Translations under genes and position numbers: made by a program | Shown here: piece after piece, positions 17,764-61,547 of the stretch | How the letters are laid out: each line of letters opens with the position of its first letter | Position numbering within the stretch: position 1 is the stretch's first letter | The notes under the pieces: model-generated | The model's input: the letters and a program-made list of their open reading frames with translations, nothing else | What the model was told of the DNA's origin: nothing | Databases searched by the model: none | Origin: Escherichia coli | Lineage (GTDB): Bacteria > Pseudomonadota > Gammaproteobacteria > Enterobacterales > Enterobacteriaceae | Assembly: GCF_013122565.1 (NCBI RefSeq) | Contig: NZ_CP053258.1 | Direction: 5' to 3' (one strand) | DNA length: 64,000 bases

Positions 17764-17778
17764 ATAAGGTGTTTATTG

Positions 17779-17875
17779 TCGGATGCGGCGCGAACGCCTT
17801 ATCCGAACTACGCGAAGTTAATCCATAGTATTCGTAGGCCGGATAAGACGTGGCAAGCGTCGCATCCGGCAATGT
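17779..17875. repeat. REP element pair between convergent hda and yfgD
   Basis: gtcggatgcggcgcgaacgccttatccgaactac and gtaggccggataagacgtggcaagcgtcgcatccggc: inverted REP copies. Confidence 0.8.
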
Positions 17876-21018: not shown

Positions 21019-21022
21019 TCTT

Positions 21023-21057
21023 CAGCCCGACGAACTGTTTCGCCGGGCTGATTTTTT
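21023..21057. terminator. Rho-independent terminator between convergent perM and focB
   Basis: cagcccgacgaactgtttcgccgggctgatttttt: 7-bp GC stem plus T-tract; overlaps the focB stop codon. Confidence 0.7.
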
Positions 21058-21904
21058 AGGGTTCCTGACGTAAATAAATAGCCCGATAACAAATACTCAC
21101 CAGCACTGCACCGCCGATAATATTACCCAGCATCACCGGGAGCAGATTGGCGGTAATAAAATGGCTGACCGTCAGTGCCGGAAAATTGTCTGCGCTACTG
21201 TGCGCCAGTTGCCAGAAGGGGGGAGGGGCGAAATGGCGAATGGCAATGGCGAACGGAATCACAAACAAATTGGCGATACAGTGCTCAAAGCCACTGGCGA
21301 CAAACAGGGTGATGGGCAAAATCATGGCGACGATTTTGTCGCATAACGAACGCCCGCAATAACTCATCCACAGCGCCAGGCAAACCATCAGATTGCACAT
21401 AATGCCGAGGCTGACAGATTCAGTAAATGTATGATGCATTTTGCCCTCGGCGCAGTGTAAAACCGCGACTCCCCACATCGCGTTTTCACTCATCACCAGC
21501 CCGGAAAACCAGATTAACAAACTGAAACAGGCAATACCTGCCAGATTACCGCAGGCCACCAGAAGTGCGTTAATCAGCCATGTTCGCCAACTAATAACGC
21601 CCCGACTTTTTGCCATCACCGTCATTACCGACGAGGTGAACAGGCTGGTGCCGCAAACCGCCAGCAAAATAAAGCCGAGTGTAAAGCAAAGGCCGCCCAC
21701 CAGATGGGTTAATGCCTGTGAAGACGGGGCATCGGCGATAACGGAAAGGTAAAAAGTAAATCCGATCGCCATAAACACGCCAGCGGACATCGCCATTAAA
21801 AAGACCGACACTTTACTGCGGGCAATTTTATGGGCGGCAATCCGTTCAGCGATTGCCGCTTTTCTGGCGCTCAACTGCAAGTCGAAAGAGAGTTTGTTTC
21901 TCAT
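21056..21904 (-). CDS. focB: Formate channel (FNT family)
   Basis: 282 aa; formate/nitrite transporter fold; last gene of the hyf-hyfR-focB cluster. Confidence 0.92.
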   Translation of the reverse strand: MRNKLSFDLQLSARKAAIAERIAAHKIARSKVSVFLMAMSAGVFMAIGFTFYLSVIADAPSSQALTHLVGGLCFTLGFILLAVCGTSLFTSSVMTVMAKSRGVISWRTWLINALLVACGNLAGIACFSLLIWFSGLVMSENAMWGVAVLHCAEGKMHHTFTESVSLGIMCNLMVCLALWMSYCGRSLCDKIVAMILPITLFVASGFEHCIANLFVIPFAIAIRHFAPPPFWQLAHSSADNFPALTVSHFITANLLPVMLGNIIGGAVLVSICYRAIYLRQEP

Positions 21905-21925
21905 GCATACTCCTGCAAAAGCAGA

Positions 21926-23941
21926 TTACAACACCTCGCGAACCGAGATCCCCAGACGCTGCATTCGTGACAGCAGCGTGGTGCGCTTCATCCCTAATCG
22001 TGTCGCCGCGCCACGGGGCCCGGCAACAATGCCATTGGTTTCTCGCAATACCTGAACAATGCGCTGAGGTTCTTCTTCGTCATTCTCTGGCGTCGTCGGG
22101 TGCAGCAACTGCGCCATTGAACTGCGAAGCGCTGAATCTTCATTTAGCGTCGGCAGTAAACGGCTTTGTCGGACATTAAGATGTAAATTCAGACTGTTAC
22201 CGCGAGTCAGCAGTACCGCTCGCTCAATCACGTTTTCCAGCTCGCGCACGTTGCCCGGCCAGTCCCACGACATCAACTGGCGTAGCGCCTCGGTCGGGAT
22301 GGCGTCAATTGCGCGATTCATATGGCGCGCCATTTTTTGCGTGAAATGTTTTGCTAAAAGAGGGATATCTTCCGGACGGTCGCGCAGCGGCGGCAATTCC
22401 AGTGGGAAGACATTCAGGCGATAAAAGAGATCGCTGCGAAACTGGCGATCTTCAACCATTTGCCACAAATCACGGTTGGTGGCGGCAATGACTCTGACAT
22501 TCACCGGGATCGTTCTACTCCCGCCGAGACGCTCAATTTCCCGCTCCTGCAATACGCGCAGCAGTTTAGGCTGAAGTTCTAACGGCAGATCGCCAATTTC
22601 ATCGAGAAACAACGTGCCGCCATCGGCAATTTCAAAACGACCACGATGGGTATTAATCGCACCAGTAAACGCCCCTTTGTCATGACCGAATAACTCACTT
22701 TCCAGAAGACTGGCGGGGATGGCAGCGCAGTTGATTTTGACCAGCGGCTTGTCGCGTCGCGGGCTAAGTTGATGGATCGCTCTGGCGATCACCTCTTTGC
22801 CGGTTCCGGTTTCACCACAAATCAACACCGTACTGTCGCTCTTCGCCACAATATCTACCTGCTGGAGCAGGTCTTCCATTGCCTGGCTTTGATAGATAAT
22901 GTCACCGACGCCCAGATTCGAAAGGAGCTGCTCGCTAAGCTGGTGGTTTTCTTGCTGCAAACTTTCCTGCAAATCGGTCATGCTACGCCAGGCATCGGCA
23001 TTGCCAACGGCAATAGCGATGCGATCGGCTATGTGTTGTAGTAGCTGGCAGTTTTCCTCACTAAAGAGAGTGGAAGAGGTATGCGCCAGCAACAATGCAC
23101 CCGGTGTATGGTTGCCAAAGGTAAGCGGTATAAGGAGCGCAGATTCGCAGCCGTTAGATGCAAGTAAGTGTAATAACGGGTCGCGTTGCCAGAGAAACAG
23201 ATCGTCTGCACGGTGCGTCAAGGTCGGTTGTCGGGTTTGTAGCGTTTGTGTCAGCAATACACTGTCGCCAGGCATATTGCGTGGCAGACACGCACAATGT
23301 GAGGCAGAAAGATCGCTGCACCACAGGCTGAACTTCTCGTTCTTTCGATGATCGCCCAGTACCATACTGACTGAAGCCAGACCGAAAAAATGATGGATCT
23401 CACGAGCGACGTCAGCGATCAGATCGTCGAGATCAAGATGTGACAGCACTGCATTAGTGATATCCACCAGTACCCGATGATGATCGCGATCTTTCTCCAG
23501 CAAACGCAGCGCCACCTGTTGTTCTTCATCATTGAGCCATGATTGCAGAACCGGGGTGATAATGCGTGCCAGCCAGTTAAACAGTGTGCAATCCTGGGGA
23601 GTAAAACGGCTGCCGTGGGTACGTATAAAGCGTAGCTCCGCCATTCCACTACTGCCGAGAAGGACGGCGTGACGCGAATAATCGACCATCTCGCCCTGAT
23701 ACTCTGTTGTTGCCGTCACATCGCTGCCATCATCATGGTAGCGGTAATAGAAGTTGCTTTTGAGAACATGCAGTTCAATAAGTTGTACCGGGCTGAACGG
23801 CGGCGGCAGCGGGATGAAGGCGCGTAATAAAGACGCCTTGCCGTGTTTCTGTGCTAACCGCTCCGCGAGCATTCCGTTTACCGCTTCAATTGTTATTCCT
23901 TGTGGCGGGGCAAACATCGCCTCGTCTGACATAGCCATCAA
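21926..23941 (-). CDS. hyfR: Sigma54-dependent transcriptional activator of the hyf operon (FhlA-like)
   Basis: 671-codon ORF; GAF-type N-terminus, AAA+ sigma54-interaction domain ([14 protein letters not shown]), C-terminal HTH. Confidence 0.93.
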
Positions 23942-23967
23942 CAGTCCTTATTAATGAGAAATCCTTC

Positions 23968-24381
23968 TCACGCAATTTTTCTGGCCATCAGATAGATGGC
24001 CGGTTCCTGCACAATTTCATCCAACAGATGAATGAATTGAATGCTACGCGCTTGCCACACAGACGTCGCGTCATCCGCCAGTGGCGCGAATGCCCGGGTC
24101 AACAGGGCGGTGTGGCTGGTGTCAATAACAATCTCACCAAAAGTCATCACCCCCAGCATCTTACGTCGGGCTTGCTCCTCTTCGACCAGTGCAAGCCAAT
24201 CTTCGTATTCCGTCAGTGGGCAGCGGAAGGCGACATTCAGACAATCAATCACGCCAACGTGATGACCGATAGCCAGTGAGTAATACATTACCTGAGAGCT
24301 GTGTTCCGGCATCTCGTCGCTACTGGCGACAAACTTTTTTCGCAGCGTCCAGAAAACAATTTCCCCGCACTCTTCAGTCAT
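23968..24381 (-). CDS. hyfJ: HycH-like hydrogenase maturation/assembly factor
   Basis: ORF 23968..24483 trimmed to [17 protein letters not shown]... (137 aa); its start overlaps the hyfI stop by 8 nt. Confidence 0.85.
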
Positions 24382-25132
24382 GTAACCCCCGGAGTACGCG
24401 AAAGAGTTGCTGAACGATACTATTGAGACGCGGATCGTCGGCTTCGCGCAACCAGGTGTTAACCTGATTTCCTGTAGGATCATCGCTTAAATGGCGCAGG
24501 AGCCGATCGCAAATTTCTCGCCCCTGACGATAGCCTGCCAGCCGCCGCGCTTCTCGCTCAACGGCGATACGCTGTGATGGCGGGATCTGCGGCCACAGCG
24601 GTTGCATAGTCACCCCGGTGGGATCGCGATAATCCACCGCGTGAATCTTCTGTTGCAGCAAACCGAGCGCCACGGCGAAACCGTGAATGGTGGCGGCCGG
24701 TGTTGGCGGGCAGCCGGGGATCCAAACATCAATGGGGACAATGGTGTCGCTGCCGCCCCAGACGCTGTAGAGATCGTGGAAAATACCGCCGCCGACACCG
24801 CACGCGCCGTAGGAAACACAGATTTTATGATCGGGGGCAGACTCATACGCCCGAAGTGCAGGCATACGCATCGCCCGGGTGACTGCGCCAGTAAATAACA
24901 AAATATCGGCGTGACGCGGTGATGAAACAACCTTAATGCCAAAACGTTCTGCGTCGAATACTGGTGTGATGGCGGCAAAAATTTCGATTTCACAGGCGTT
25001 GCAGCCGCCGCAATCGACGCGATAAACGTAGGCTGAGCGACGGATATCCTGTAGCAAATGCCGCTTCATCTTTTGCGTTTGCTCGTCTAGCATGATGGGC
25101 TGGCTGACATGTTGTGTAAGCACTGGACTCAT
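24374..25132 (-). CDS. hyfI: Hydrogenase-4 small subunit (NuoB/HycG-like, Fe-S)
   Basis: 252 aa; NuoB-type cysteine pattern (CGGCN...GCPP). Confidence 0.92.
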
Positions 25133-25674
25133 AGCTGCTCCTTAGCCACCAGCGGTACATCTGTATCGTCGTTGATCAGCGTCGCGCGTTGTTTGCACTC
25201 CGGGCAGACGCTCGCTTGCGCCCGCAACATTTCGCGGTTTTGTGGCGCATTTTGTTGCTGTGCCAACAATTCAGCAGCCAGTGCGACGGTTTTTTGCGGG
25301 GCAAACGGGCGTTCGCAACGGCTGCAACGTTGTAGATGGAACGTCGCGCGGGTATAGAGATCGGCTTTATTGGTGACGGTCAGTTCAAAGTTATTGGTAA
25401 GCTGAATGGCTCTGGTCGGGCACACTTCTTCACAACGTCCGCAGTAAATACAACGCCCCAGATAGAGCTGCCAGGTGCGCGAATTTTGCTGGTTGTCGGT
25501 CTGGATAGTCAGCGCATTTGCCGGACAAGCACAGGCGCAGGCACCGCAGGCAATACATTGGCTGGGCATCAGGTCCGGTTTCCCGCGAAAGCCTGGGCTG
25601 ACCTCCAGTGGCGCGAAGGGATATTTCACCGTCGCGGTTCCGGCGCGCATAATAGTTTTCAGTAACTTCAGCAT
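25129..25674 (-). CDS. hyfH: Hydrogenase-4 ferredoxin-like subunit (2x[4Fe-4S])
   Basis: 181 aa; two CxxCxxCxxxCP motifs. Confidence 0.92.
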
Positions 25675-25683
25675 CTTCTGTCC

Positions 25684-27399
25684 TTACTTCAGCGGCGAAC
25701 GGTTACGATCAATGCCGTAGCGTTCGATCTCTTTATACGGCACGGTTTTTGACTGGCGCTTGCGCACATCAACCAGCGTCACACGGTCGGTACAGGAGTA
25801 GCAGGGATCAAGGCTACCGATAATCAGCGGTGCGTCAGAAACGGTATTGCCGCGTAGCATGTAACGCAGCACCGGCCAGTTGGCGTAGGTGGCGGCACGA
25901 CAGCGCCAGCGGAACAATTTTTGGTTATCACCGAGCATGCTCCAGTGCACGTCTTCACCGCGTGGCGCTTCAACAAAGCCGAGCGCGAATGCGTGAGGTT
26001 TATAGCTAAAGCCTTCGGTCAGCAGCGGGGTATCCGGCATGTTGTCGAGGGCAAATTCCAGCATTGCCAGCGAATCAAACGTCTCTTTGACACGGACCAT
26101 CACGCGGGAGAAGACATCGCCGCCGGTAAAGGTAAACAATGTTTTTGGAATATTGCCGTAGTCGGCGTAGGGGTGATCAAAGCGCAAATCACGGGCAAAA
26201 CCACTGCCGCGGATCAGCGGTCCTACGGGGCTATAATCACGGGCGATTTGTCGGTCGAGAATGCCAATGCCCTGAGTGCGTTGTTCCATATTCGGCGTGG
26301 CAAGCAGCATTTCTACCAGCTCGGACACGTCGGCGCGCATCTCGCGCACCAGTTTCAGCGTTTGCAGACGTTGCTCTTTGAGAATATCGCGGCGAACACC
26401 ACCAATCAGATTCAGACCGTAGGTTTTACGCGACCCGGTCAGCAATTCCGCCATCGTCATCGACTTTTCCCGCACGCGGAAAAATTGCATAAAGCCGGTA
26501 TCAAATCCAACAAAATGGCAGGAGAGGCCAAGGTTGAGCAAATGACTGTGCAGACGTTCGACTTCCAGCAGAATCGAGCGAATAGTATGCGCTCGTTGCG
26601 GCACCTCAATACCCAGTGCATTTTCAACCGAGTTGGTATAGGCCACACTGTGGGCAAAACCGCAAATCCCACACACGCGGTCCGATAAGAAGGTCACTTC
26701 GTTGTAGCCCATCCGCGTTTCTGCCAGTTTCTCCATGCCGCGATGGACATAAAACAGGCGGTAATCAGCATCGACAATTTGCTCGCCATCCACAAACAAG
26801 CGGAAGTGACCCGGTTCATCGGAGGTGATATGCAGCGGGCCGACAGGGATCACCCGCGCATCGCTGTTGCCCTCATTGATAAACGGATACGTTTCGGTAT
26901 CAGTCGTCGGTTCAGGGCGCAGTCGATAATCCATCGCATCTTTGCGCAGCGGATGCATATCTTCCGGCCAGTCATCGGGCAACACCAGGCGACGCTGATC
27001 AGGCAGGCCAACCGGAATCAGCCCGTACATATCGCGAATTTCTCGCTCGCCCCAGACCGCGGCAGGGACGCGCGGTGTGACTGACGGAAACTCCCGACTG
27101 TCGGCATCGACCAGTGCCTTCACCACGATCCAGCATTTTTCGGCCCCTTCCATTGAAAGGGCATAATAAACCGCGTAATGACCGTTAAGTGTCCGCTCGT
27201 CGTTGCCAAACAGAACCGGAAGCCAGCCATCATGTTGATAATAAAGATAATGTACAACGTCAGGCAGCAGATTGATTTTCACCGTAATGGTAACCTGTTC
27301 AGGCGTTTGTCGCTCTTCATCCAGCACCGCGCCGGGGAACTGCGTTTTCAGGGCGGCGAGAATCGCTTCGCCACGATTTGACGATGAATTAACGTTCAC
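25684..27399 (-). CDS. hyfG: Hydrogenase-4 [NiFe] large subunit (HycE/NuoCD-like)
   Basis: ORF 25684..27444; GTG at 27399 is preceded by GGAGA and gives [14 protein letters not shown]...; N-terminal RxCGxC and C-terminal DPCxSC nickel-ligating motifs. Confidence 0.9.
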
Positions 27400-28969
27400 T
27401 GTGTTTCTCCGAAACAGATGCGGTGCCTGAAGGCAAAAAATCATGCCAGGTGCTACGTTGTGCAGGCAGGTCGTGCGTCCCTGAGAGGACTATAGTGGAA
27501 GCGCCCGCCAGGATCCTGATGACAGGTTGTGGAATATGCGTTCCCATCGCCAGCATCATGACCAGCAGAATCACCATTGGCGAGGTGGTCAACCAGCCAA
27601 GTTCACCCCGGTTAACGGCCTGCGGCGGTTTCGCCATTAACACCCGCGCAGCCATCCGTACCAGGCCCGCCAGCACCAGCGTTAACAGCAATAACAGCAG
27701 GACGATAATCAGCAGGTGATTACGTGCCAGTCCGGCGGTAACGGTCATAAATTCGCTAAGAAAAATGTTGAAGGGCGGCATCCCTGCCAGCGCCAGCGCA
27801 CCGCCGCCAAACAGCACGGCGGTAAATGGCATGATTTTGAGCATCCCGCAGACGACGTTGAGATCGCGCGTGCCGTACTTGAGCAGTACATTGCCGGAAC
27901 CGCAGAACAGCAGCGTTTTTGCCAGACTGTGGTTTAAGGTGTGCAGCAGCGCGGCAAAAATTCCCAGCGGCCCGCCAATGCCTAACGCCACCGCGACCAG
28001 TCCCATGTTCTCCACGCTGGAGTACGCCAGCAGACGCTTAATGTCCCGCTGCACCAGAATGAAAAATGCCGCCACGGCAACCGACAACATGCCGAAGATG
28101 AGCAACAACCGGTTGGGGAAATCGCTGCCGATGGCCTGGCAAATAATGATGTAATAGCGAATCAGCACCAACAGTGCGCAGTTCAGCAATACGGCGGAGA
28201 GCAGGGCGCTGACCGGACTCGGCGCTTCACTATGAGCATCCGGCAGCCAGGCGTGCATGGGAAATAGCCCGGTTTTGGTGCCAAAGCCAATTAGCACAAA
28301 CACAAAGGCCAACAGCATTAATGTTGGGTCAAGCAAGGACGATTGCTTAAGAACCTCACTCCAGAATATCGCCATTTCTGCCTGCGGCATAACGCTGGCG
28401 GCGTTGGCGTATACCAGCACGGTACCGAACAGACCAAAAGCGACACCAACAGTACAAATAATGATGTACTTCCATGCTGCTTCCAGCGATGAACGCTGAC
28501 CGTAAATGCCTACCAGAAACGCCGAGCTTAAGGTGGTGGCTTCGATCGCCGCCCACATCACAATCAGGTTATTGCTGGTAACAACCAGCAGCATGGTGAA
28601 CAAAAACAGATGAAAGAAACCGTAGTAATCGCACAGCGTAACAGGTGAAAGCTCGCCGTGTGCCACTTCATGACGCATGTAGCCAATCGAGTAAACACCG
28701 GTGAGAAAGCCAATCACACCAAGAATGGCGAGGAACAAACCGCCCAGACCATCAATATGAAGCCACAGTCCCGCAGCGAATATTTCTCCCGCATCAGCGG
28801 CAGTTTGGACCACCCAGAGTGCCAGAATCAGCAGCAGTGTGATCCCTAAGCTATGTAATACTGTCACGGCGCGAGTCGCAGAGTGCCCCCGTTTCCGGCA
28901 GGCAAAACAGAGCAGCGAAAAAAGCAGCGGCGTGAGCAGGAGTAAAGCGAACATCACAGAATAACTCAT
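27389..28969 (-). CDS. hyfF: Hydrogenase-4 membrane subunit, NuoN/antiporter-like
   Basis: 526 aa polytopic membrane protein; Mrp-antiporter/NuoLMN family features. Confidence 0.9.
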
Positions 28970-28973
28970 CTCA

Positions 28974-29624
28974 TTATCCCTTCAGCGCGGTCAAGTTGTT
29001 CACGTCCAGCGTGCCGTGGGTACGCCATATTTTTCTTGCCAGTAACACCATCACAATGACGGCGAAGATGGCGTCGGTAGCGATACCAATTTCCACCAGT
29101 TCCGGTGCACGCCAGGCTAGAAGCGCCAGCACCAGATGGGAGCCGTTTTCCATCAGGCAGTAACCAAAAATTTGCCGCAGGATATTGCGCTGGCTAACAA
29201 TGCACAGCAGGCCAAGCAGAAAATGACCTAACGCCACCGCCAGCGCCGGTTTCAACCCGGTAGCCATCGGTAGCTTCACGGGCTGAACGACAAATGCGCA
29301 AAGCAGGACAATTAACGCCGCGAGCAGTGCCATCATTGCCGGACCGAATAACGCTTTTTCAGGGATGTTCTGGGGAATATTTCGTGCAGCGTAAGTCATG
29401 ATTAACGGTACCAGCAGCACTTTGGTGATAAAGGCGCTGGCGGACCAGATCAGCAGTTGCTCTGTGGCGAACAGGCACGAGAGAGTGGCGAAAATAGACA
29501 CCAGCACCAGCGACTGGCAGGCGTAAAATCCGCATGACAGGCGATAGCTTTTGACGCTAATCACAAACAGCGATGTCAGCATCATCAGTCCCGCCAGATT
29601 ATTTACGATCATAGAACCGGTCAT
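28974..29624 (-). CDS. hyfE: Hydrogenase-4 membrane subunit (NuoK-like)
   Basis: 216 aa hydrophobic protein, positionally HyfE. Confidence 0.88.
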
Positions 29625-29635
29625 TCATCATCTCC

Positions 29636-31075
29636 TTACTGCAACCAGGTCGCGGCGATTACGCTGGAAATCAGCGACATCACAATCAGTACAATCAACA
29701 CCAGGCGCATTGACCCTGGCAGCGGTGCGGCATTGGCGACGGCCTCGCTCGGTTTGCCCGGCACGACGCGACCAAACCAGCGAATAAACCAGGCGAAACT
29801 GGCGACCGATTCAATCATCAGCAGAATCATGGCGGGCAGCAGGATCCAGTACTCCACTGACAACGCAAAACCGGCGGCAAACAGCGGGAATTTACTGAAG
29901 AAGCCGTTGAACGGCGGTACGCCGGTAATCGCCAGCGCTGCCACGCAGAAACCCACGCCAGGCAACGGCAGGGTGTGCAATACGCCACGCAGACGCGGCA
30001 ACAAGCGCGTGCCGCAGCTGTAACTCAGCGCACCTGCTACAAGGAAAAACAGGCTTTTAGCGAACGCGTGGTTGACGATGTAGGCGATGCTGCCCTCCAG
30101 CGCCAGCCGCGAGCCGAAGATGGAGAGAGACAAACCGAAGAACATCCAGCCAAGTTGAGTGATGGTCGACCAGGCCAGCAACCGCTTCATATCCTGCTGT
30201 GGCAAATACATCAGAAAGCCATAAAGAATGGTGACCAGGGCCATGACCATGCCAACGCCGCCAATCACATGCGGGATATTGCCGCCGTCGATAATGGCGC
30301 GGGCAAAAATGTAAACGCCCACTTTCACCATCGATGCGGCGTGGAGATAGGCGCTGATCGGTGTTGGCGCTTCCATTGCATCCGGTAGCCACGCTTGCAT
30401 CGGTAGCTGGGCCGATTTCCCCCACGCGGCAAACAGGATGCCGCCATAAACCAGATAACGTGCGTCGCCGTGTAACTCGCTCATCGCGCTAAGCGCAAAC
30501 GTTCCGGTCTGCAAAAACAGCGTGGCGGCGGCAAGATACAACCCCAACGAGCCGATATGAGTGATAAGTAACGCTTTTAGTGCTGAACGCTGCGCTTTAT
30601 CGCTCTGGTAATAACTGATCAACGCCCAGGAGCAGCCGCCCGTAATTTCAAAAAACAACAACTGACCGAGCAGCGTCGAAGAGAGTACCAGTCCCGCCAT
30701 CGCGCCGATAAACAGCAGCAAAAATGCGTAATAACGATTTGTGCCGTTATGCGGGTGTTCGCGATTTTTATCCGTCAGATAACCCGTGGAGTAGATCGTG
30801 ACCAGCAAACCGAGAAACACCACCACAAACAGAATCAGCGTACTCACGCGATCAATGACCAGGCCTAACAACGCCACATCCCCCACGTTGACCAACGTCA
30901 ACGTGACGGCAACTTTATCGGCCTGATAAAACGCGGAGATCAGTGACAACATGCACAGCGTGGTCAGCGCGGCGAACAAAACCCCCCATTCGGCGGCCCG
31001 ACGTTGTGGCGAAAACGAAACGACCAGTGCGCCGATAAAAGGCAGCAATAACGTCGTCAGAGCAAGATTTTCCAT
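29636..31075 (-). CDS. hyfD: Hydrogenase-4 membrane subunit, NuoM/antiporter-like
   Basis: 479 aa polytopic membrane protein of the antiporter-like family. Confidence 0.9.
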   Translation of the reverse strand: MENLALTTLLLPFIGALVVSFSPQRRAAEWGVLFAALTTLCMLSLISAFYQADKVAVTLTLVNVGDVALLGLVIDRVSTLILFVVVFLGLLVTIYSTGYLTDKNREHPHNGTNRYYAFLLLFIGAMAGLVLSSTLLGQLLFFEITGGCSWALISYYQSDKAQRSALKALLITHIGSLGLYLAAATLFLQTGTFALSAMSELHGDARYLVYGGILFAAWGKSAQLPMQAWLPDAMEAPTPISAYLHAASMVKVGVYIFARAIIDGGNIPHVIGGVGMVMALVTILYGFLMYLPQQDMKRLLAWSTITQLGWMFFGLSLSIFGSRLALEGSIAYIVNHAFAKSLFFLVAGALSYSCGTRLLPRLRGVLHTLPLPGVGFCVAALAITGVPPFNGFFSKFPLFAAGFALSVEYWILLPAMILLMIESVASFAWFIRWFGRVVPGKPSEAVANAAPLPGSMRLVLIVLIVMSLISSVIAATWLQ

Positions 31076-31091
31076 ATTCCGTCAGTGCTCC

Positions 31092-32039
31092 TTACAGACC
31101 GGTTAACCAGAAGACCCATGCAAGCGCAGCAAGGCTGAAGCCAAGCCAGGTCACATGGTGAATGAGTAAAAATCGCCCGCGTGCCAGCGTGTTTTCTGCG
31201 ATAGAGGCCAGAACAAAAATCAGCAAAACCTTGAACAGCGTAACGACAAGTGAAATCAGCAGGCAGGCGAGAGAAAGCTCTTGCGCGCGCCCAAAGGGCA
31301 GAAACAGGGCCACAAACAGTGCTGCCATCACGACCTGTTTCAGCCCCAGCCCCCATTTCGCCAACGCCAGCCCGGCACCGGAATATTCGGTCAGCGGGCC
31401 TTCCTGTAATTCCTGTTCTGCTTCAGCAACATCAAAGGGAATTTTTCCCATCTCAATGAAGCAGGCAAAACCACAGGCCAGTAACGCCAGGACGGTGGTT
31501 AGCGGCGAGTTCCAGCCCGTTGCCAGCGTATTGCTGATCATCTCGATATGCGTGGAACCTGCTATCAGCGCCAATACCAGCAGTGAGAGAATGAGCATGG
31601 GTTCGACCAGAATGCCGAGCGTCAACTCGCGACTGGCACCGACTCCCGCAAACGGGCTTCCGGTATCCAGCCCGGAAAGAGCAAAGAAAAAACGAAACAG
31701 GGCAAGAAGATAGATAAGGGTGATCAGATCGCCGCCGCCCGCAAAAGGGGAAACGGTAATAAATAGTGGTAGGGCCATCGCCAGCACCAGCATGCTGCTG
31801 ATTAATACCCACGGCATCAGGCGGAACATCAGACCTGAAGTTGTCGGCGCAACTTCCTGGCGTTTAAACAGTTTGTGGATATCGCGATAATCCTGCCAGA
31901 TCCCCGGTCCGCGGCGGGAGTGCATTCGCGCGCGTATCTGCCGGGAAATACCCGTAAAAAGCGGGGTTAGCATCAGCAGAATCACGGCCTGTGCTAACGC
32001 AAAAATGACCAGATATCCGTCGCAAAGAGTTTGTCTCAT
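31092..32039 (-). CDS. hyfC: Hydrogenase-4 membrane subunit (NuoH/HycD-like)
   Basis: ORF trimmed to MRQTLCDGYLVIFALAQAVILLML... (315 aa). Confidence 0.9.
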   Translation of the reverse strand: MRQTLCDGYLVIFALAQAVILLMLTPLFTGISRQIRARMHSRRGPGIWQDYRDIHKLFKRQEVAPTTSGLMFRLMPWVLISSMLVLAMALPLFITVSPFAGGGDLITLIYLLALFRFFFALSGLDTGSPFAGVGASRELTLGILVEPMLILSLLVLALIAGSTHIEMISNTLATGWNSPLTTVLALLACGFACFIEMGKIPFDVAEAEQELQEGPLTEYSGAGLALAKWGLGLKQVVMAALFVALFLPFGRAQELSLACLLISLVVTLFKVLLIFVLASIAENTLARGRFLLIHHVTWLGFSLAALAWVFWLTGL

Positions 32040-32049
32040 GGTGATTTCC

Positions 32050-34068
32050 TTAGACGGCAATAGCGATTAGCAGCACAACCAGTGCGGTAACCACATACAG
32101 GCAATAGAGACGAAAGTCGCCGCTTTGCAGATGCTGTATTTCTTTGGCCAGCCGTTGGGTGGCGCTCACGATGGGGCGGATCACCCGCTCATCCCAGAAG
32201 GGTTCTGTGCTCTGAGCCCTGGCGGTGACGTGCGCAAGACCTTTATTTAGCCTCAGCGTAGGGTCGAGCTGTTGTCGTAGACGGAATAGCGCAGAAAAGA
32301 CCACACGCAGCGGCTGCATCACGCCATTGCCTGACGGAGCCATCGCGTTTTCCCAGCTGTAGCCGCATGCCCAGGCATCTCCTGTGTGACGAAACGCTGC
32401 GCGGCGCGAACGACACCACAGCCAGTAAAGGCCAGGCAGCAAAGGCATCGCCAGTAGTAACAGCAACAGTAATAAGGGGGTGACCTGTGTATGAAACGTG
32501 CCGGGTACAAGCGCCATTCCGCTGGCGACAGTGACGGGAGGGGTATCGGTAAACGCATGGGCAATATGCATTATCTTCGGTGCCAGCCAACTGGCACTAA
32601 GCGCAATTAATACGCAGAGTGCCGCGAGCAGTAGCATGGCGACGATCATCGTATTTGGCACTTCCTGTGCCTCTTCAGCGTGTGTACTGCGCGGCGCACC
32701 ACAGAAAGTAATACCGTACATTTTGACGAAGCACATTACTGCCAGCCCACCAGTGACTGCCAGCATCACCATAGCAATAGGGCCCGCAAGTTGTAGCGCT
32801 ACGGCTTCCACACGACTTAGTGAGAACAGCGACTGCCAGGTGTACCATTCGCTGATAAAACCATTCAGCGGAGGAATGGCTGATATCGCGAGGCAACCAA
32901 TCAGGCATGCTGCGGCTGTCCACGGCATCCGTTTTGCCAGTGCCCCCATTTTTTCCATGTCGTGGGTATGCAAACGCGAAATAATCGCACCCGCGCCGAG
33001 AAATAGCAGCCCTTTGAACAGCGCATGGTTGAGCAGATGAAACAGCGCGCCGAGCAGTCCAACCACGGTGAGCAGCGGGTCGTGCAGTGACAGACCAATC
33101 ATCGCCACACCGACCGCCAGCAAAATAATGCCGACGTTTTCGACGGTACTCCAGGCCAGCAGCCGTTTGATATCCTGTTCCGCCAGCGCATATAGCACGC
33201 CCAGGAGCGCGGAGATTGTGCCGATCGCCATCACCAGAATGCCCCACCACAGAGGCAAACCCGTTTGCGCCAGCAGATCCATCGCTACTTTCAGGATGCC
33301 GAAAATACCGATTTTGACCATTACACCAGACATCAACGCCGAAGCGTGCGATGGTGCGGCAGGGTGAGCGCGCGGCAACCAGCTGTGCAACGGCATCATC
33401 CCGGCTTTCGCGCCAAAACCGAAAAAGGCCAGCAGGAATACCGCCGACGCCAGCCCCGGAGAAAGTGAAAGCGTGCGGAAACTGGCAAAATCGAGGCTGC
33501 CGCTTTCGCGCCCCATCAGCAAGAAGGCGATCATAATCAGCACCGATCCGGCGTGGGCGATAAAAAAGTAGAGCATGCCAGCGTTGATTGACGTTTTATC
33601 CTGCCTGGCAATGACCAGAAACCAGGAAGACAGCGACATCATTTCAAACAGCACGATGAACCAAAAAGCGTTGTCCATCACCAGCAGGGCAACCATCGAT
33701 GCGATGAAAATATTCATAAAGAAGCCCATCGCCGCCGCGCCTTTGCCCTCGTATTCGCGCATATAAGTCAATGAATAGAGCGAACAAACTACCACTAGCA
33801 AGGAGATAACCAGCACCATAAATGCCGAGAGGCTATCTATTCGCAGAGTTAAATCGGCAAAGTCAAAAGGGGTGGCAAAACGGGCGACTAAAGTTACGCC
33901 TCCATGTAATTGCGTAATTCCGCTGATGATGCCAATCACGCCGCCCACCAGCGATGTGATGCCGGAAAGCTTAATAGCCAGTCTGTCCAGACCGAGTAAA
34001 AACAGCGAAGCCAGACTGGCAAACAGATAGAGGATCAGCGACCAGGTTAATAATTGCAGGGCATCCAT
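32050..34068 (-). CDS. hyfB: Hydrogenase-4 membrane subunit, NuoL/antiporter-like
   Basis: 672 aa; MDALQLLTWSLILYLFASL...; large polytopic antiporter-like protein. Confidence 0.92.
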   Translation of the reverse strand: MDALQLLTWSLILYLFASLASLFLLGLDRLAIKLSGITSLVGGVIGIISGITQLHGGVTLVARFATPFDFADLTLRIDSLSAFMVLVISLLVVVCSLYSLTYMREYEGKGAAAMGFFMNIFIASMVALLVMDNAFWFIVLFEMMSLSSWFLVIARQDKTSINAGMLYFFIAHAGSVLIMIAFLLMGRESGSLDFASFRTLSLSPGLASAVFLLAFFGFGAKAGMMPLHSWLPRAHPAAPSHASALMSGVMVKIGIFGILKVAMDLLAQTGLPLWWGILVMAIGTISALLGVLYALAEQDIKRLLAWSTVENVGIILLAVGVAMIGLSLHDPLLTVVGLLGALFHLLNHALFKGLLFLGAGAIISRLHTHDMEKMGALAKRMPWTAAACLIGCLAISAIPPLNGFISEWYTWQSLFSLSRVEAVALQLAGPIAMVMLAVTGGLAVMCFVKMYGITFCGAPRSTHAEEAQEVPNTMIVAMLLLAALCVLIALSASWLAPKIMHIAHAFTDTPPVTVASGMALVPGTFHTQVTPLLLLLLLLAMPLLPGLYWLWCRSRRAAFRHTGDAWACGYSWENAMAPSGNGVMQPLRVVFSALFRLRQQLDPTLRLNKGLAHVTARAQSTEPFWDERVIRPIVSATQRLAKEIQHLQSGDFRLYCLYVVTALVVLLIAIAV

Positions 34069-34685
34069 TAGCGTTGCTCCTGAGTGAGGGAAAGGGGATC
34101 CTCCCCGCCATTGGCAAACCAGCTTGCGGCAAGGCGCTGTTTTTCTTTCATCTGACGTTGCAGGCTATCGTCGGTGATCAGCCGTAACGCCTGATTCGGG
34201 CAAGCGCGAACGCAGGCCGGACCTTCTGGCAAGAAATCACACAGGTCGCATTTCACCGCGACGGTCTGGACACCCGGTTCCCAGCGCAGCAAAGCATGTT
34301 GTGTTGGCGCGTTTTCTTCGCCGTCTTTGAGTGAGCCTTCAGCCTGAAAAACATATTGCGCAGGGGCATTCACCGGACGGCTTCCTGAAGCGCTGATTGC
34401 GCCAAATGGGCAGACCACGGCGCAAAGCTTGCAGCCAATACAGAGGCTTTCGTTGAGTTGGATCGCATCATCCCTCTGGGAGATGGCATTGACCGGGCAG
34501 ACCTGCAGGCAAGGGGCTTCCTCACAGTGATGACACACGACAGGGGCAGTGAGTGTTGACGTCTTCGCCAGGGCCAGGCGCGGGTGTTGCTGTAAACCTT
34601 GCGTTTTATGCACGTCCGAACAGGCAGCGAGACAGGTATTACATCCTGTACACCACAGTGGTTCGGCCACCACAAAGCGGTTCAT
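34068..34685 (-). CDS. hyfA: Hydrogenase-4 iron-sulfur electron-transfer subunit (HycB-like)
   Basis: ORF trimmed to MNRFVVAEPLWCTGCNTCLAACS... (205 aa); four ferredoxin-type Cys clusters; GGAG RBS before the ATG. Confidence 0.92.
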   Translation of the reverse strand: MNRFVVAEPLWCTGCNTCLAACSDVHKTQGLQQHPRLALAKTSTLTAPVVCHHCEEAPCLQVCPVNAISQRDDAIQLNESLCIGCKLCAVVCPFGAISASGSRPVNAPAQYVFQAEGSLKDGEENAPTQHALLRWEPGVQTVAVKCDLCDFLPEGPACVRACPNQALRLITDDSLQRQMKEKQRLAASWFANGGEDPLSLTQEQR

Positions 34686-34731
34686 GTCGGCTCCTTGAAA
34701 ATGATATGAAACATTGCATTGCATTTCATAT

Positions 34732-34747
34732 TGCATAAAGGATGCCA
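34732..34747 (-). promoter_or_regulatory. Sigma54 (-24/-12) promoter of the hyf operon
   Basis: Minus-strand TGGCATCCTTTATGCA matches TGGCAC-N5-TTGCA spacing and the GG/GC dinucleotides, about 47 bp upstream of the hyfA ATG; consistent with the sigma54-dependent activator gene hyfR in the same locus. Confidence 0.7.
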
Positions 34748-34942
34748 GTCTGATTAATTTAATATATTCAATAAGTTATGAATTAACTGGATTCTGAACG
34801 GTACAAAAATGATGGTCATTAACGTTCAGCAAAAAATGGATTCGACACCCGTGTCGCAGGGGAAAGCGAGAATGTGATCTTGATCACGATAAGTGAAGTG
34901 TGCTGACCGCAAGCGCAGCCAGCACGGAATGGAGCAAAGTAA

Positions 34943-38165: not shown

Positions 38166-38220
<55 letters not shown>

Positions 38221-42819: not shown

Positions 42820-42824
42820 TAATA

Positions 42825-42894
42825 GCCGGGTAGGCCTGATAAGACCGTATCAGGCATCATGGCCGGATGCGGCGTTAACGCCTTATCCGGCCAC
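42825..42894. repeat. REP element cluster between ypfH and ypfN
   Basis: gccgggtaggcctgataagaccgtatcaggc...ggccggatgcggcgttaacgccttatccggccac. Confidence 0.8.
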
Positions 42895-54146: not shown

Positions 54147-54216
54147 GTAGACCGGATAAGACGCTGTAGGCCGGATAAGACGCGTCAGCGTCGCATCCGG
54201 CAATCAGCATCCGGCG
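54147..54216. repeat. REP element cluster between ypfG and tktB
   Basis: gtagaccggataagacgctgtaggccggataagacgcgtcagcgtcgcatccggcaatcagcatccggcg. Confidence 0.8.
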
Positions 54217-60403: not shown

Positions 60404-60883
60404 ATGAAACGAATTGCGTTTGTGGGTACCGTCGGGGCAGGGAAAACAACGTTATTTAATGCGTTGCAGGGGAATTATACCCTCGCCAGAAAAACACAGG
60501 CCGTGGAATTTAATGATAAGGGCGATATTGATACGCCGGGTGAATATTTTAGCCATCCCCGCTGGTATCACGCCTTAATTACCACGCTACAGGATGTGGA
60601 CATGCTGATCTATGTCCACGGCGCGAATGACCCGGAAAGTCGGTTGCCTGCCGGGTTGCTGGATATTGGCGTCAGCAAACGGCAAATCGCCGTCATCAGT
60701 AAAACGGACATGCCAGATGCTGACGTCGCCGCAACGCGAAAGTTATTGCTTGAGACGGGCTTCGAAGAGCCGATTTTCGAGCTAAACAGCCACGACCCGC
60801 AAAGCGTGCAGCAACTGGTGGATTATCTGGCATCTCTCACCAAACAGGAGGAAGCAGGTGAAAAAACTCATCACAGCGAATGA
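60404..60883 (+). CDS. eutP: Ethanolamine-utilisation P-loop protein EutP
   Basis: 159 aa; Walker A GTVGAGKTT. Confidence 0.9.
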   Translation: MKRIAFVGTVGAGKTTLFNALQGNYTLARKTQAVEFNDKGDIDTPGEYFSHPRWYHALITTLQDVDMLIYVHGANDPESRLPAGLLDIGVSKRQIAVISKTDMPDADVAATRKLLLETGFEEPIFELNSHDPQSVQQLVDYLASLTKQEEAGEKTHHSE

Positions 60884-61547
60884 TATTCGTGAAGCACACG
60901 CGCGTGGCGAACAGGCAATGTCCGTGGTTCTGCGCGCCAGCATTATTACCCCGGAAGCCCGTGAAGTGGCGGACCTGCTGGGTTTTACCATCACTGAATG
61001 CGAGGAATCGACACCAGCAACGGTATCTGTGCCCGTAGAGAAAACCGAAAGCCAGCGCATCCGCGAAACCATCATTGCCCAGCTGCCGGAAGGCCAGTTT
61101 ACCGAAAGCCTGGTCGCGCAGTTGATGGAAAAAGTGATGAAGGAAAAACAGTCGCTGGAGCAGGGTGCAATGCAGCCGAGCTTTAAATCGGTGACCGGCA
61201 AAGGCGGCATCAAAGTTATTGATGGTAGCAGCGTCAAGTTTGGTCGCTTTGATGGCGCACAACCGCATTGCGTGGGCTTGACTGATCTTGTGACCGGAGA
61301 CGACGGCAGCAGCATGGCCGCCGGTTTTATGCAGTGGGACAACGCCTTCTTCCCGTGGACCCTGAACTACGACGAAATCGACATGGTGCTGGAAGGGGAG
61401 CTGCATGTTCGCCACGAAGGCGAAACCATGATCGCCAAAGCAGGCGACGTGATGTTTATCCCGAAAGGCTCCAGCATCGAATTTGGTACGACATCCAGCG
61501 TGAAATTCCTGTATGTCGCCTGGCCGGCTAACTGGCAATCCCTATGA
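60858..61547 (+). CDS. eutQ: Ethanolamine-utilisation cupin-fold protein EutQ
   Basis: ORF begins at GTG 60858 (VKKLITANDIREAHARGEQ...) after a GGAGGAAG RBS; overlaps the eutP 3' end by 26 nt; exact start uncertain. Confidence 0.85.
   Translation: MKKLITANDIREAHARGEQAMSVVLRASIITPEAREVADLLGFTITECEESTPATVSVPVEKTESQRIRETIIAQLPEGQFTESLVAQLMEKVMKEKQSLEQGAMQPSFKSVTGKGGIKVIDGSSVKFGRFDGAQPHCVGLTDLVTGDDGSSMAAGFMQWDNAFFPWTLNYDEIDMVLEGELHVRHEGETMIAKAGDVMFIPKGSSIEFGTTSSVKFLYVAWPANWQSL

Follow-up and report, generated by a model that had tools for sequence, protein, structure and literature searches.

An intact hydrogenase-4 (hyf) locus with a full-length HyfG in an uncommon lineage of Escherichia coli

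No other bacterial hydrogenase is as closely related to complex I as hydrogenase-4 (Hyd-4) of Escherichia coli, and to our knowledge no activity of this enzyme has ever been demonstrated in the species. The hyf locus, which encodes it, is contained in a stretch of 64,000 nucleotides from the E. coli contig NZ_CP053258.1; this whole stretch is called the window in the following, and all positions are given in its numbering unless K-12 is named. The evidence described below argues, with a probability of roughly 90%, that it is the E. coli hyf locus in its ancestral, intact form with a full-length HyfG. Its products would be hydrogenase-4 (group 4a, the core of formate hydrogenlyase-2, FHL-2), HyfR as the activator and FocB as a channel for formate.

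The locus occupies positions 21056-34685 of the minus strand, on which all of its features are located. It consists of 12 uninterrupted open reading frames (ORFs) in the order hyfABCDEFGHIJ-hyfR-focB, and the ORF map contains neither stop codons nor frameshifts within them. Two loci served as references, namely the annotated one of K-12 MG1655 (b2481-b2492) and that of strain 100416, the best-matching complete genome. In all three cases the locus is flanked by bcp and yfgO and has the same chromosomal position and gene order. Over its full 64 kb, the window is collinear with positions 2571849-2635539 of K-12, at 98.3% identity and with few indels. The twelve proteins of the locus are 97-99.6% identical to those of K-12 and have equal lengths except for HyfG, which comprises 571 residues in the window and in strain 100416 and 555 residues in K-12. 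The genes are tightly packed: hyfF and hyfG overlap by 11 nt, hyfI and hyfJ by 8 nt, hyfH and hyfI by 4 nt, and hyfA and hyfB by 1 nt. The remaining gaps inside the locus measure 4-29 nt, and a Shine-Dalgarno-like sequence is located ahead of every start. The K-12 locus has the same flanks, overlaps and start codons, including the GTG of hyfG; it differs in a hyfG that is 48 nt shorter and in a leader with one AATGC copy fewer. A previous sequence-only reading of the window had described a complete and intact locus with hyfF/hyfG and hyfH/hyfI overlaps of 11 and 4 nt, and had regarded it as a known system. The ORF map and the alignment with both references agree with this description, and the overlaps are exact. 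The observation and the gene assignments are thus confirmed; the system is the already known hyf of E. coli and adds no new biology. The alignment with reference Hyf proteins proposed in the same reading revealed no truncation or frameshift, but the lengths do not agree throughout, as the HyfG of the window is 16 residues longer than that of K-12.

The hyf locus of the window is at most 98.8% identical to that of any complete RefSeq genome. For several of its Hyf proteins (accessions within QJU27452-QJU27461), only one E. coli genome is recorded as a source, and the window therefore stems from an uncommon E. coli lineage.

The assignment of the individual subunits was based on Pfam and NCBIfam models. 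Hyf-specific NCBIfam equivalogs exist for HyfB, HyfD, HyfE, HyfF and HyfH, and HyfA, HyfC, HyfG, HyfI and HyfR were assigned via their identity to the K-12 proteins. The gene hyfA (34068-34685; preceded by an AAGGAG Shine-Dalgarno sequence) codes for a HycB-like ferredoxin of 205 residues, 202 of which are identical in K-12. It contains Pfam Fer4 domains and 16 cysteines, in agreement with multiple [4Fe-4S] clusters. HyfH (25129-25674; 181 residues) is a HycF/NuoI-like subunit with two Fer4 domains and two CxxCxxCxxxC motifs, as expected for 2x[4Fe-4S]; it scores 363 bits with the HyfH equivalog (cutoff 270). HyfI (24374-25132; 252 residues, 248 identical to K-12) is the NuoB-like small subunit and matches Pfam Oxidored_q6. 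The large subunit HyfG (25684-27399; GTG start) combines a NuoC-like Complex1_30kDa domain with a 49kDa/NiFeSe domain and can be aligned over its entire length with HycE in the structure determined for formate hydrogenlyase-1 (FHL-1; 7z0s_E, E = 1.8e-292). Its NiFe-binding motifs are of the RxCGxCxxxH type at residue 241 and DPCYSCTDR at residue 531, and the latter is followed by a C-terminal peptide of 32 residues after the Arg. HyfJ (23968-24381; 137 residues) resembles the assembly chaperone HycH (Pfam HycH, 9e-57; NCBIfam HycH subfamily, 208 bits versus a cutoff of 145). Together with the NuoH-like HyfC described below, the predicted proteins comprise a large and a NuoB-like small subunit, a NuoI-like ferredoxin and a NuoH-like anchor, which are the sequence characteristics of a group 4 membrane-bound [NiFe]-hydrogenase.

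The two genes at the end of the locus code for a regulator and a channel. HyfR (21926-23938; 670 residues) is a sigma54 enhancer-binding activator with a GAF domain (1.9e-13), the AAA+ domain Sigma54_activat (4.7e-75) and AAA_lid_14. It contains the Walker A motif GETGTGK at residue 375, ESELFGH at 413 and GAFTGA at 422; no Pfam helix-turn-helix family was found in its C-terminus at E <= 0.001. Residues 101-668 of HyfR align with positions 134-690 of the 692 positions of the NCBIfam FhlA model, and the score of 640 bits is below the cutoff of 830 bits. FocB (21056-21904; 282 residues, 281 identical to K-12) is an FNT-family channel, which is recognized by Pfam Form_Nir_trans (2e-64) and by the NCBIfam FocB model (649 bits versus a cutoff of 499).

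The most conspicuous difference between the window and K-12 concerns hyfG. In K-12, 48 nt between two direct repeats of GCCCGTGATT have been deleted in frame, and the protein has lost 16 residues as a result. In the window, the segment that is gone from K-12-type alleles is present at positions 26197-26244, flanked by these repeats, and encodes HyfG residues 386-401 with a conserved A-x-D...GPxxRxSG core. It can be aligned without gaps with IARDFSNVGPMVRASGH of HycE and with GAVGPTARGSGI of Pyrococcus MbhL; the counterparts in the 49-kDa subunit of complex I are SGPILRGSGI and TGGSLRASGV. Because the segment is conserved in HycE, archaeal MbhL and complex I including that of mitochondria, the full-length HyfG is considered ancestral and the segment part of the conserved core. 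NuoD-family models score K-12 HyfG 33-39 bits lower than HyfG of the window. In order to determine the distribution of the two alleles, a 121-nt probe across the deletion site was compared with 5426 complete E. coli genomes, 4294 of which matched. The site is covered fully in 2179 cases, and in about 2115 cases, including K-12 derivatives, HS and O26, the match stops at the deletion junction. It is plausible to assume that the deletion contributes to the inactivity of Hyd-4 in K-12. The K-12 operon is otherwise free of lesions, and its singletons comprise 15 synonymous and only 4 nonsynonymous changes; both observations weigh mildly against the deletion being inactivating. Neither the hyfG deletion nor a pseudogenisation of hyf is mentioned in the literature searched, which did not include the original hyf papers (1997, 2002, 2004), so that both may already be known.

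The membrane arm is encoded by five genes. HyfC (31092-32039; 315 residues, 310 identical to K-12) is NuoH/HycD-like and matches Pfam NADHdh (2e-58). HyfE (28974-29624; 216 residues) is NuoK-like in its C-terminal half; it matches Pfam Oxidored_q2 and scores 368 bits with its NCBIfam equivalog (cutoff 136). The other three, HyfB (32050-34068; 672 residues), HyfD (29636-31075; 479 residues) and HyfF (27389-28969; 526 residues), had been named as antiporter-like subunits on first inspection, and this assignment is borne out by domains, family models and conserved charged residues alike. All three contain Pfam Proton_antipo_M with E-values of 1e-53 to 1e-55. HyfB scores 974 bits with the equivalog "hydrogenase 4 subunit B" (cutoff 667), HyfD 808 bits with that of HyfD (cutoff 430), and HyfF 1178 bits with that of HyfF (cutoff 951). 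In order to locate charged residues, the three proteins were aligned with K-12 NuoL, NuoM, NuoN and HycC. E142, K221, K252 and E407 of HyfB correspond to positions E144, K234, K265 and E407 of NuoM. HyfD contains E143, K220, K251 and K395 at the positions in transmembrane helices (TM) 5, 7, 8 and 12, and HyfF has kept E143, K232 and E406. The TM5 Glu, the TM7 Lys and the TM12 Glu or Lys are therefore present in all three subunits. The functional role of these positions is that known from the complex I literature. The conservation of these residues supports a membrane arm that would be competent for ion translocation, as the sequence-only reading had suggested.

A comparison with characterized systems places these findings in context. 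In FHL-1 (hycBCDEFG, hydrogenase-3; structures 7Z0S and 7Z0T determined by cryo-electron microscopy), the subunits HycB, HycF, HycG, HycD, HycC and HycH match HyfA, HyfH, HyfI, HyfC, HyfB and HyfJ, respectively, and both the hyc and the hyf operon have sigma54 promoters. The membrane arm encoded by hyf is extended by HyfD, HyfE and HyfF. Moreover, hyf contains neither hycA nor the protease gene hycI, whereas it has its own activator and formate channel. HycC of FHL-1 contains Leu208 at the position of the TM7 lysine, in contrast to HyfB, HyfD and HyfF, which keep the lysine like NuoL, NuoM and NuoN. Domain-level homology further relates HyfI, HyfG, HyfC, HyfH, HyfE, HyfB, HyfD and HyfF to NuoB, NuoCD, NuoH, NuoI, NuoK, NuoL, NuoM and NuoN of complex I, with the key antiporter residues kept. 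In contrast to complex I, Hyd-4 possesses a [NiFe] site in place of the quinone site, lacks an NADH-oxidising module and has fewer membrane subunits. We know of only one Hyd-4 that has been shown to be active, namely that of Pectobacterium atrosepticum. According to its published description, the FHL-2 cluster of this organism (hyfABCDEFGHIJK-hyfR) encodes the same subunit set and HyfR, and its hyfG likewise starts with GTG (PMC7384014). It additionally contains the protease gene hyfK and a linked fdhF, whereas E. coli hyf has neither. The hycI gene of E. coli can replace hyfK (PMC7654741).

Expression of the operon would start from a promoter upstream of hyfA. The sigma54 -24/-12 element TGGCATCCTTTATGCA is located at positions 34732-34747 and has one exact match in the window. 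Its GG (34746-34745) and GC (34734-34733) dinucleotides are 10 nt apart, it has the form TGGCAY-N5-(T/A)TGCA, and it precedes the first gene on the coding strand. The last base lies 47 positions before the ATG of hyfA, with 46 nt in between. In K-12, chromatin immunoprecipitation sequencing (ChIP-seq) of sigma54 identified the site ATGGCATCCTTTATGCA upstream of hyfA (PMC4591121), and the hyfA promoter region gave the strongest peak of the RpoN holoenzyme in genomic systematic evolution of ligands by exponential enrichment (gSELEX; PMC8743547). The element of the window is identical to this ChIP-seq site, and it is invariant in the alignment of the bcp-hyfA spacers from the window, K-12 and strain 100416. 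The sequence-only reading had postulated a sigma54 promoter at this distance from hyfA. This proposal holds up. What makes the promoter credible is where it lies and the fact that a bound K-12 site has the identical sequence, and not consensus statistics, which do not distinguish it from chance.

On the basis of the GC dinucleotide at 34734-34733, transcription of hyfA should start at about position 34720-34721. In K-12, the start was reportedly mapped by Skibinski in 2002 to a site 30 bp upstream of hyfA, and a dependence on CRP is said to have been observed. Applied to K-12, the prediction agrees with the mapped position. It also agrees with the distance of 31 that is given for the K-12 hyfA site (PMC4591121). 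At this predicted start, positions 34711-34725 contain the tract AATGC AATGC AATGT, which has one AATGC more than its K-12 counterpart (AATGC AATGT). The leader and likewise the distance between motif and ATG are therefore 5 nt longer than in K-12 and all other complete genomes compared.

The features described so far suggest how the system would work. The sigma54-RNA polymerase would bind the -24/-12 element at 34732-34747, and an AAA+ activator, HyfR or its paralogue FhlA, would bind upstream and open the promoter for a start near 34720. In the complex, electrons from formate dehydrogenase-H (fdhF, encoded elsewhere) would travel through HyfA, HyfH and HyfI and reach HyfG, at whose [NiFe] site protons would be reduced to H2. 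The membrane arm composed of HyfC, HyfE, HyfB, HyfD and HyfF could couple this reaction to ion translocation.

Several observations weigh against the reading of the locus as an intact and functional hydrogenase-4 system. HyfF, alone among the three antiporter-like subunits, lacks the TM8 lysine and contains N263 at this position. The locus of the window includes neither an endopeptidase gene nor a formate dehydrogenase gene. With up to two mismatches, the sigma54 consensus TGGCACN5TTGCW occurs 45 times in the window, and 46.6 occurrences are expected. The extra AATGC copy at the predicted start may count in the same direction; it was found in none of 4296 hyf-bearing complete genomes queried with the 80-nt leader, for which identities did not exceed 93.8% and the matches listed were 75 nt long. 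Furthermore, hyf of K-12 is poorly expressed, and strong promoters did not give rise to Hyd-4/FHL-2 activity (PMC7654741). Finally, the decay of hyf in many E. coli lineages argues for a weak or conditional selective value.

The last two points are also the basis of the alternative that survives best, according to which the locus is a cryptic relic whose ORFs are intact yet silent or enzymatically irrelevant and which is heading for the decay seen in other lineages. This explanation is possible, although we regard it as rather unlikely. In its favour, Hyd-4 of K-12 is neither measurably expressed nor active (PMC7384014, PMC7654741), and the locus is widely damaged. The gene hyfG is absent from 1132 of the 5426 complete E. 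coli genomes (21%), and an internal segment of hyfD is missing in about 926 of the hyf-bearing genomes. For a closer inspection, 15 hyf-bearing genomes were taken at even steps down the probe ranking and analyzed together with K-12 and strain 100416, and each ORF was checked independently. All 12 genes are intact in only four of the 15 sampled genomes (VTB96933v, CUVET16-819, F3398 and RIVM_C037134, each with a full-length hyfG), and the other 11 contain lesions; an intact locus is thus not the rule. All five genomes with the deletion-type hyfG have further lesions, which comprise frameshifts in hyfB, hyfC, hyfD, hyfI or focB, a stop codon in hyfR and a deletion of about 205 nt in hyfD. Of the ten genomes with the full-length type, six are damaged; for example, O145 RM9872 has a hyfF frameshift and an ISEc20 insertion in focB, and AR_0013 has a stop codon in hyfR. 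Apparent breaks of focB in three strains turned out to be an alignment artefact at the stop codon, as RefSeq annotates these genes as intact. Stop codons at hyfI 174, focB 244, hyfD 37 and hyfB 224 occur in both hyfG backgrounds. Since such lesions are shared across strains and hyfG backgrounds, sequencing noise does not account for them and they represent inherited polymorphisms. The idea that the decay was caused by the hyfG deletion was rejected on the same grounds.

Against a cryptic relic speaks that all twelve ORFs, the cofactor motifs and the promoter are preserved in the window. Moreover, the coding regions of the window and K-12 differ by 215 nucleotide substitutions, 54 of which are nonsynonymous, and the ratio of nonsynonymous to synonymous substitution rates (dN/dS) is 0.11. 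The singletons of the window itself comprise 26 synonymous and 15 nonsynonymous changes. In the sample, intact operons have 106 synonymous and 74 nonsynonymous singletons, corresponding to a nonsynonymous-to-synonymous ratio (N/S) of 0.70, whereas the degraded ones have 54 and 70 (N/S 1.30); intact operons thus contain significantly fewer nonsynonymous singletons (Fisher p = 0.010). Because of the low dN/dS value and the lower N/S of intact operons, the locus of the window belongs to a complete minority that is still under purifying selection.

The negative activity data have to be read in the same light, as they all come from K-12, whose HyfG lacks the conserved segment of 16 residues. The Sargent group exchanged the hyf promoter of K-12 for Phyc or T5 and replaced the C-terminal peptide of HyfG, and concluded that activity is limited by more than the supply of protease (PMC7654741). 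The attempts to activate Hyd-4 were all made in K-12 derivatives (PMC7654741), and the group holds weak expression, the lack of an accessory gene and uncertainty about the conditions responsible for the problem (PMC7384014). We tentatively propose that intact, ancestral-type hyf loci with a HyfG of 571 residues may encode an active FHL-2, although this is at present a doubtful prospect. If it proved true, the 25-year puzzle of the "silent" E. coli Hyd-4 would be, at least in part, a laboratory-strain artefact. The main use of the window is this context: the K-12 reference and most of the sampled alleles are damaged, and the allele of the window is intact. The question of the silent Hyd-4 thereby becomes testable by the choice of strain or by allele repair.

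A second alternative accepts an active enzyme and disputes its function as a formate hydrogenlyase. Hyd-4 could instead function in both directions, consume H2 or accept electrons from a different donor, for example at a particular pH or on a particular carbon source. The lack of a formate dehydrogenase gene in the locus is consistent with this possibility. It is nevertheless improbable. A formate channel, FocB, and an activator resembling FhlA are encoded in the locus, and HycB and HycF, to which FdhF docks in FHL-1 (PMC9474812), have their equivalents in HyfA and HyfH. Moreover, the Pectobacterium orthologue is a genuine FHL-2 (PMC7384014). That TGGCATCCTTTATGCA is a chance match and that another promoter drives the operon is very improbable: the chance-level frequency of consensus matches and a weak sigma70-like match overlapping the hyfA leader (34729-34701) would be in accord with it, but the identical K-12 sequence is bound by sigma54 in vivo and in vitro, the element is invariant in the aligned strains, it lies in the right orientation within the sole intergenic gap ahead of hyfA, and the locus itself codes for a sigma54 activator.

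Two further elements upstream of the promoter might contribute to the regulation of the intact operon. The inverted repeat CGACAC-GG-GTGTCG at positions 34843-34856 precedes the predicted start by about 128 bp. It has no second copy in the window, where 0.15 occurrences are expected by chance, and is invariant in the three-way alignment. It resembles the repeated TGTCGA/CGACA motifs of the hyc-hyp intergenic region of K-12 and is a candidate for an upstream activating site of FhlA or HyfR. The CRP-like palindrome TGTGATCTTGATCACG (34873-34888), about 160 bp upstream of the predicted start, deviates in one position from TGTGA-N6-TCACA. The palindrome does not vary between the window, K-12 and strain 100416; with one mismatch, six CRP-like sites are found in the window, compared to 2.1 expected. 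A regulatory role of this palindrome can only be presumed from its sequence.

At the other end of the locus, a GC-rich hairpin of 13 bp (21022-21051) is located directly 3' of the focB stop codon. It is the top terminator-like match and probably serves as a terminator shared with the convergent yfgO. According to a negative reverse-transcription PCR across hyfJ-hyfR, which is said to have been reported by Skibinski et al. in 2002, hyfR-focB may be transcribed apart from hyfA-J, in which case the locus would comprise two transcription units. Long antisense ORFs within hyfG and hyfB were regarded as fortuitous, given the GC-rich coding DNA in which they lie. When the entire window was scanned for Rfam families and tRNAs, no matches were obtained.

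Outside the hyf locus, the window shows some minor differences from K-12. Its left edge (positions 1-298), downstream of xseA, has no similarity to the xseA-yfgJ region of K-12; a partial match (67% coverage, 93% identity) exists in other E. coli beside an "adhesion domain-containing protein", and this edge is apparently a variable junction. In the ypfH-ypfN intergenic region (42820-42893), small indels relative to K-12 are clustered. Short repeats resembling repetitive extragenic palindromes (REP) are common to this and several other intergenic sites (17772-17873, 38172-38208 and 54166-54204). In eutQ (ORF 60858-61547, plus strand), the window lacks the 12-nt in-frame sequence GCCAGCGTGCCA at about position 61035, and the encoded EutQ consists of 229 residues compared to 233 in K-12.

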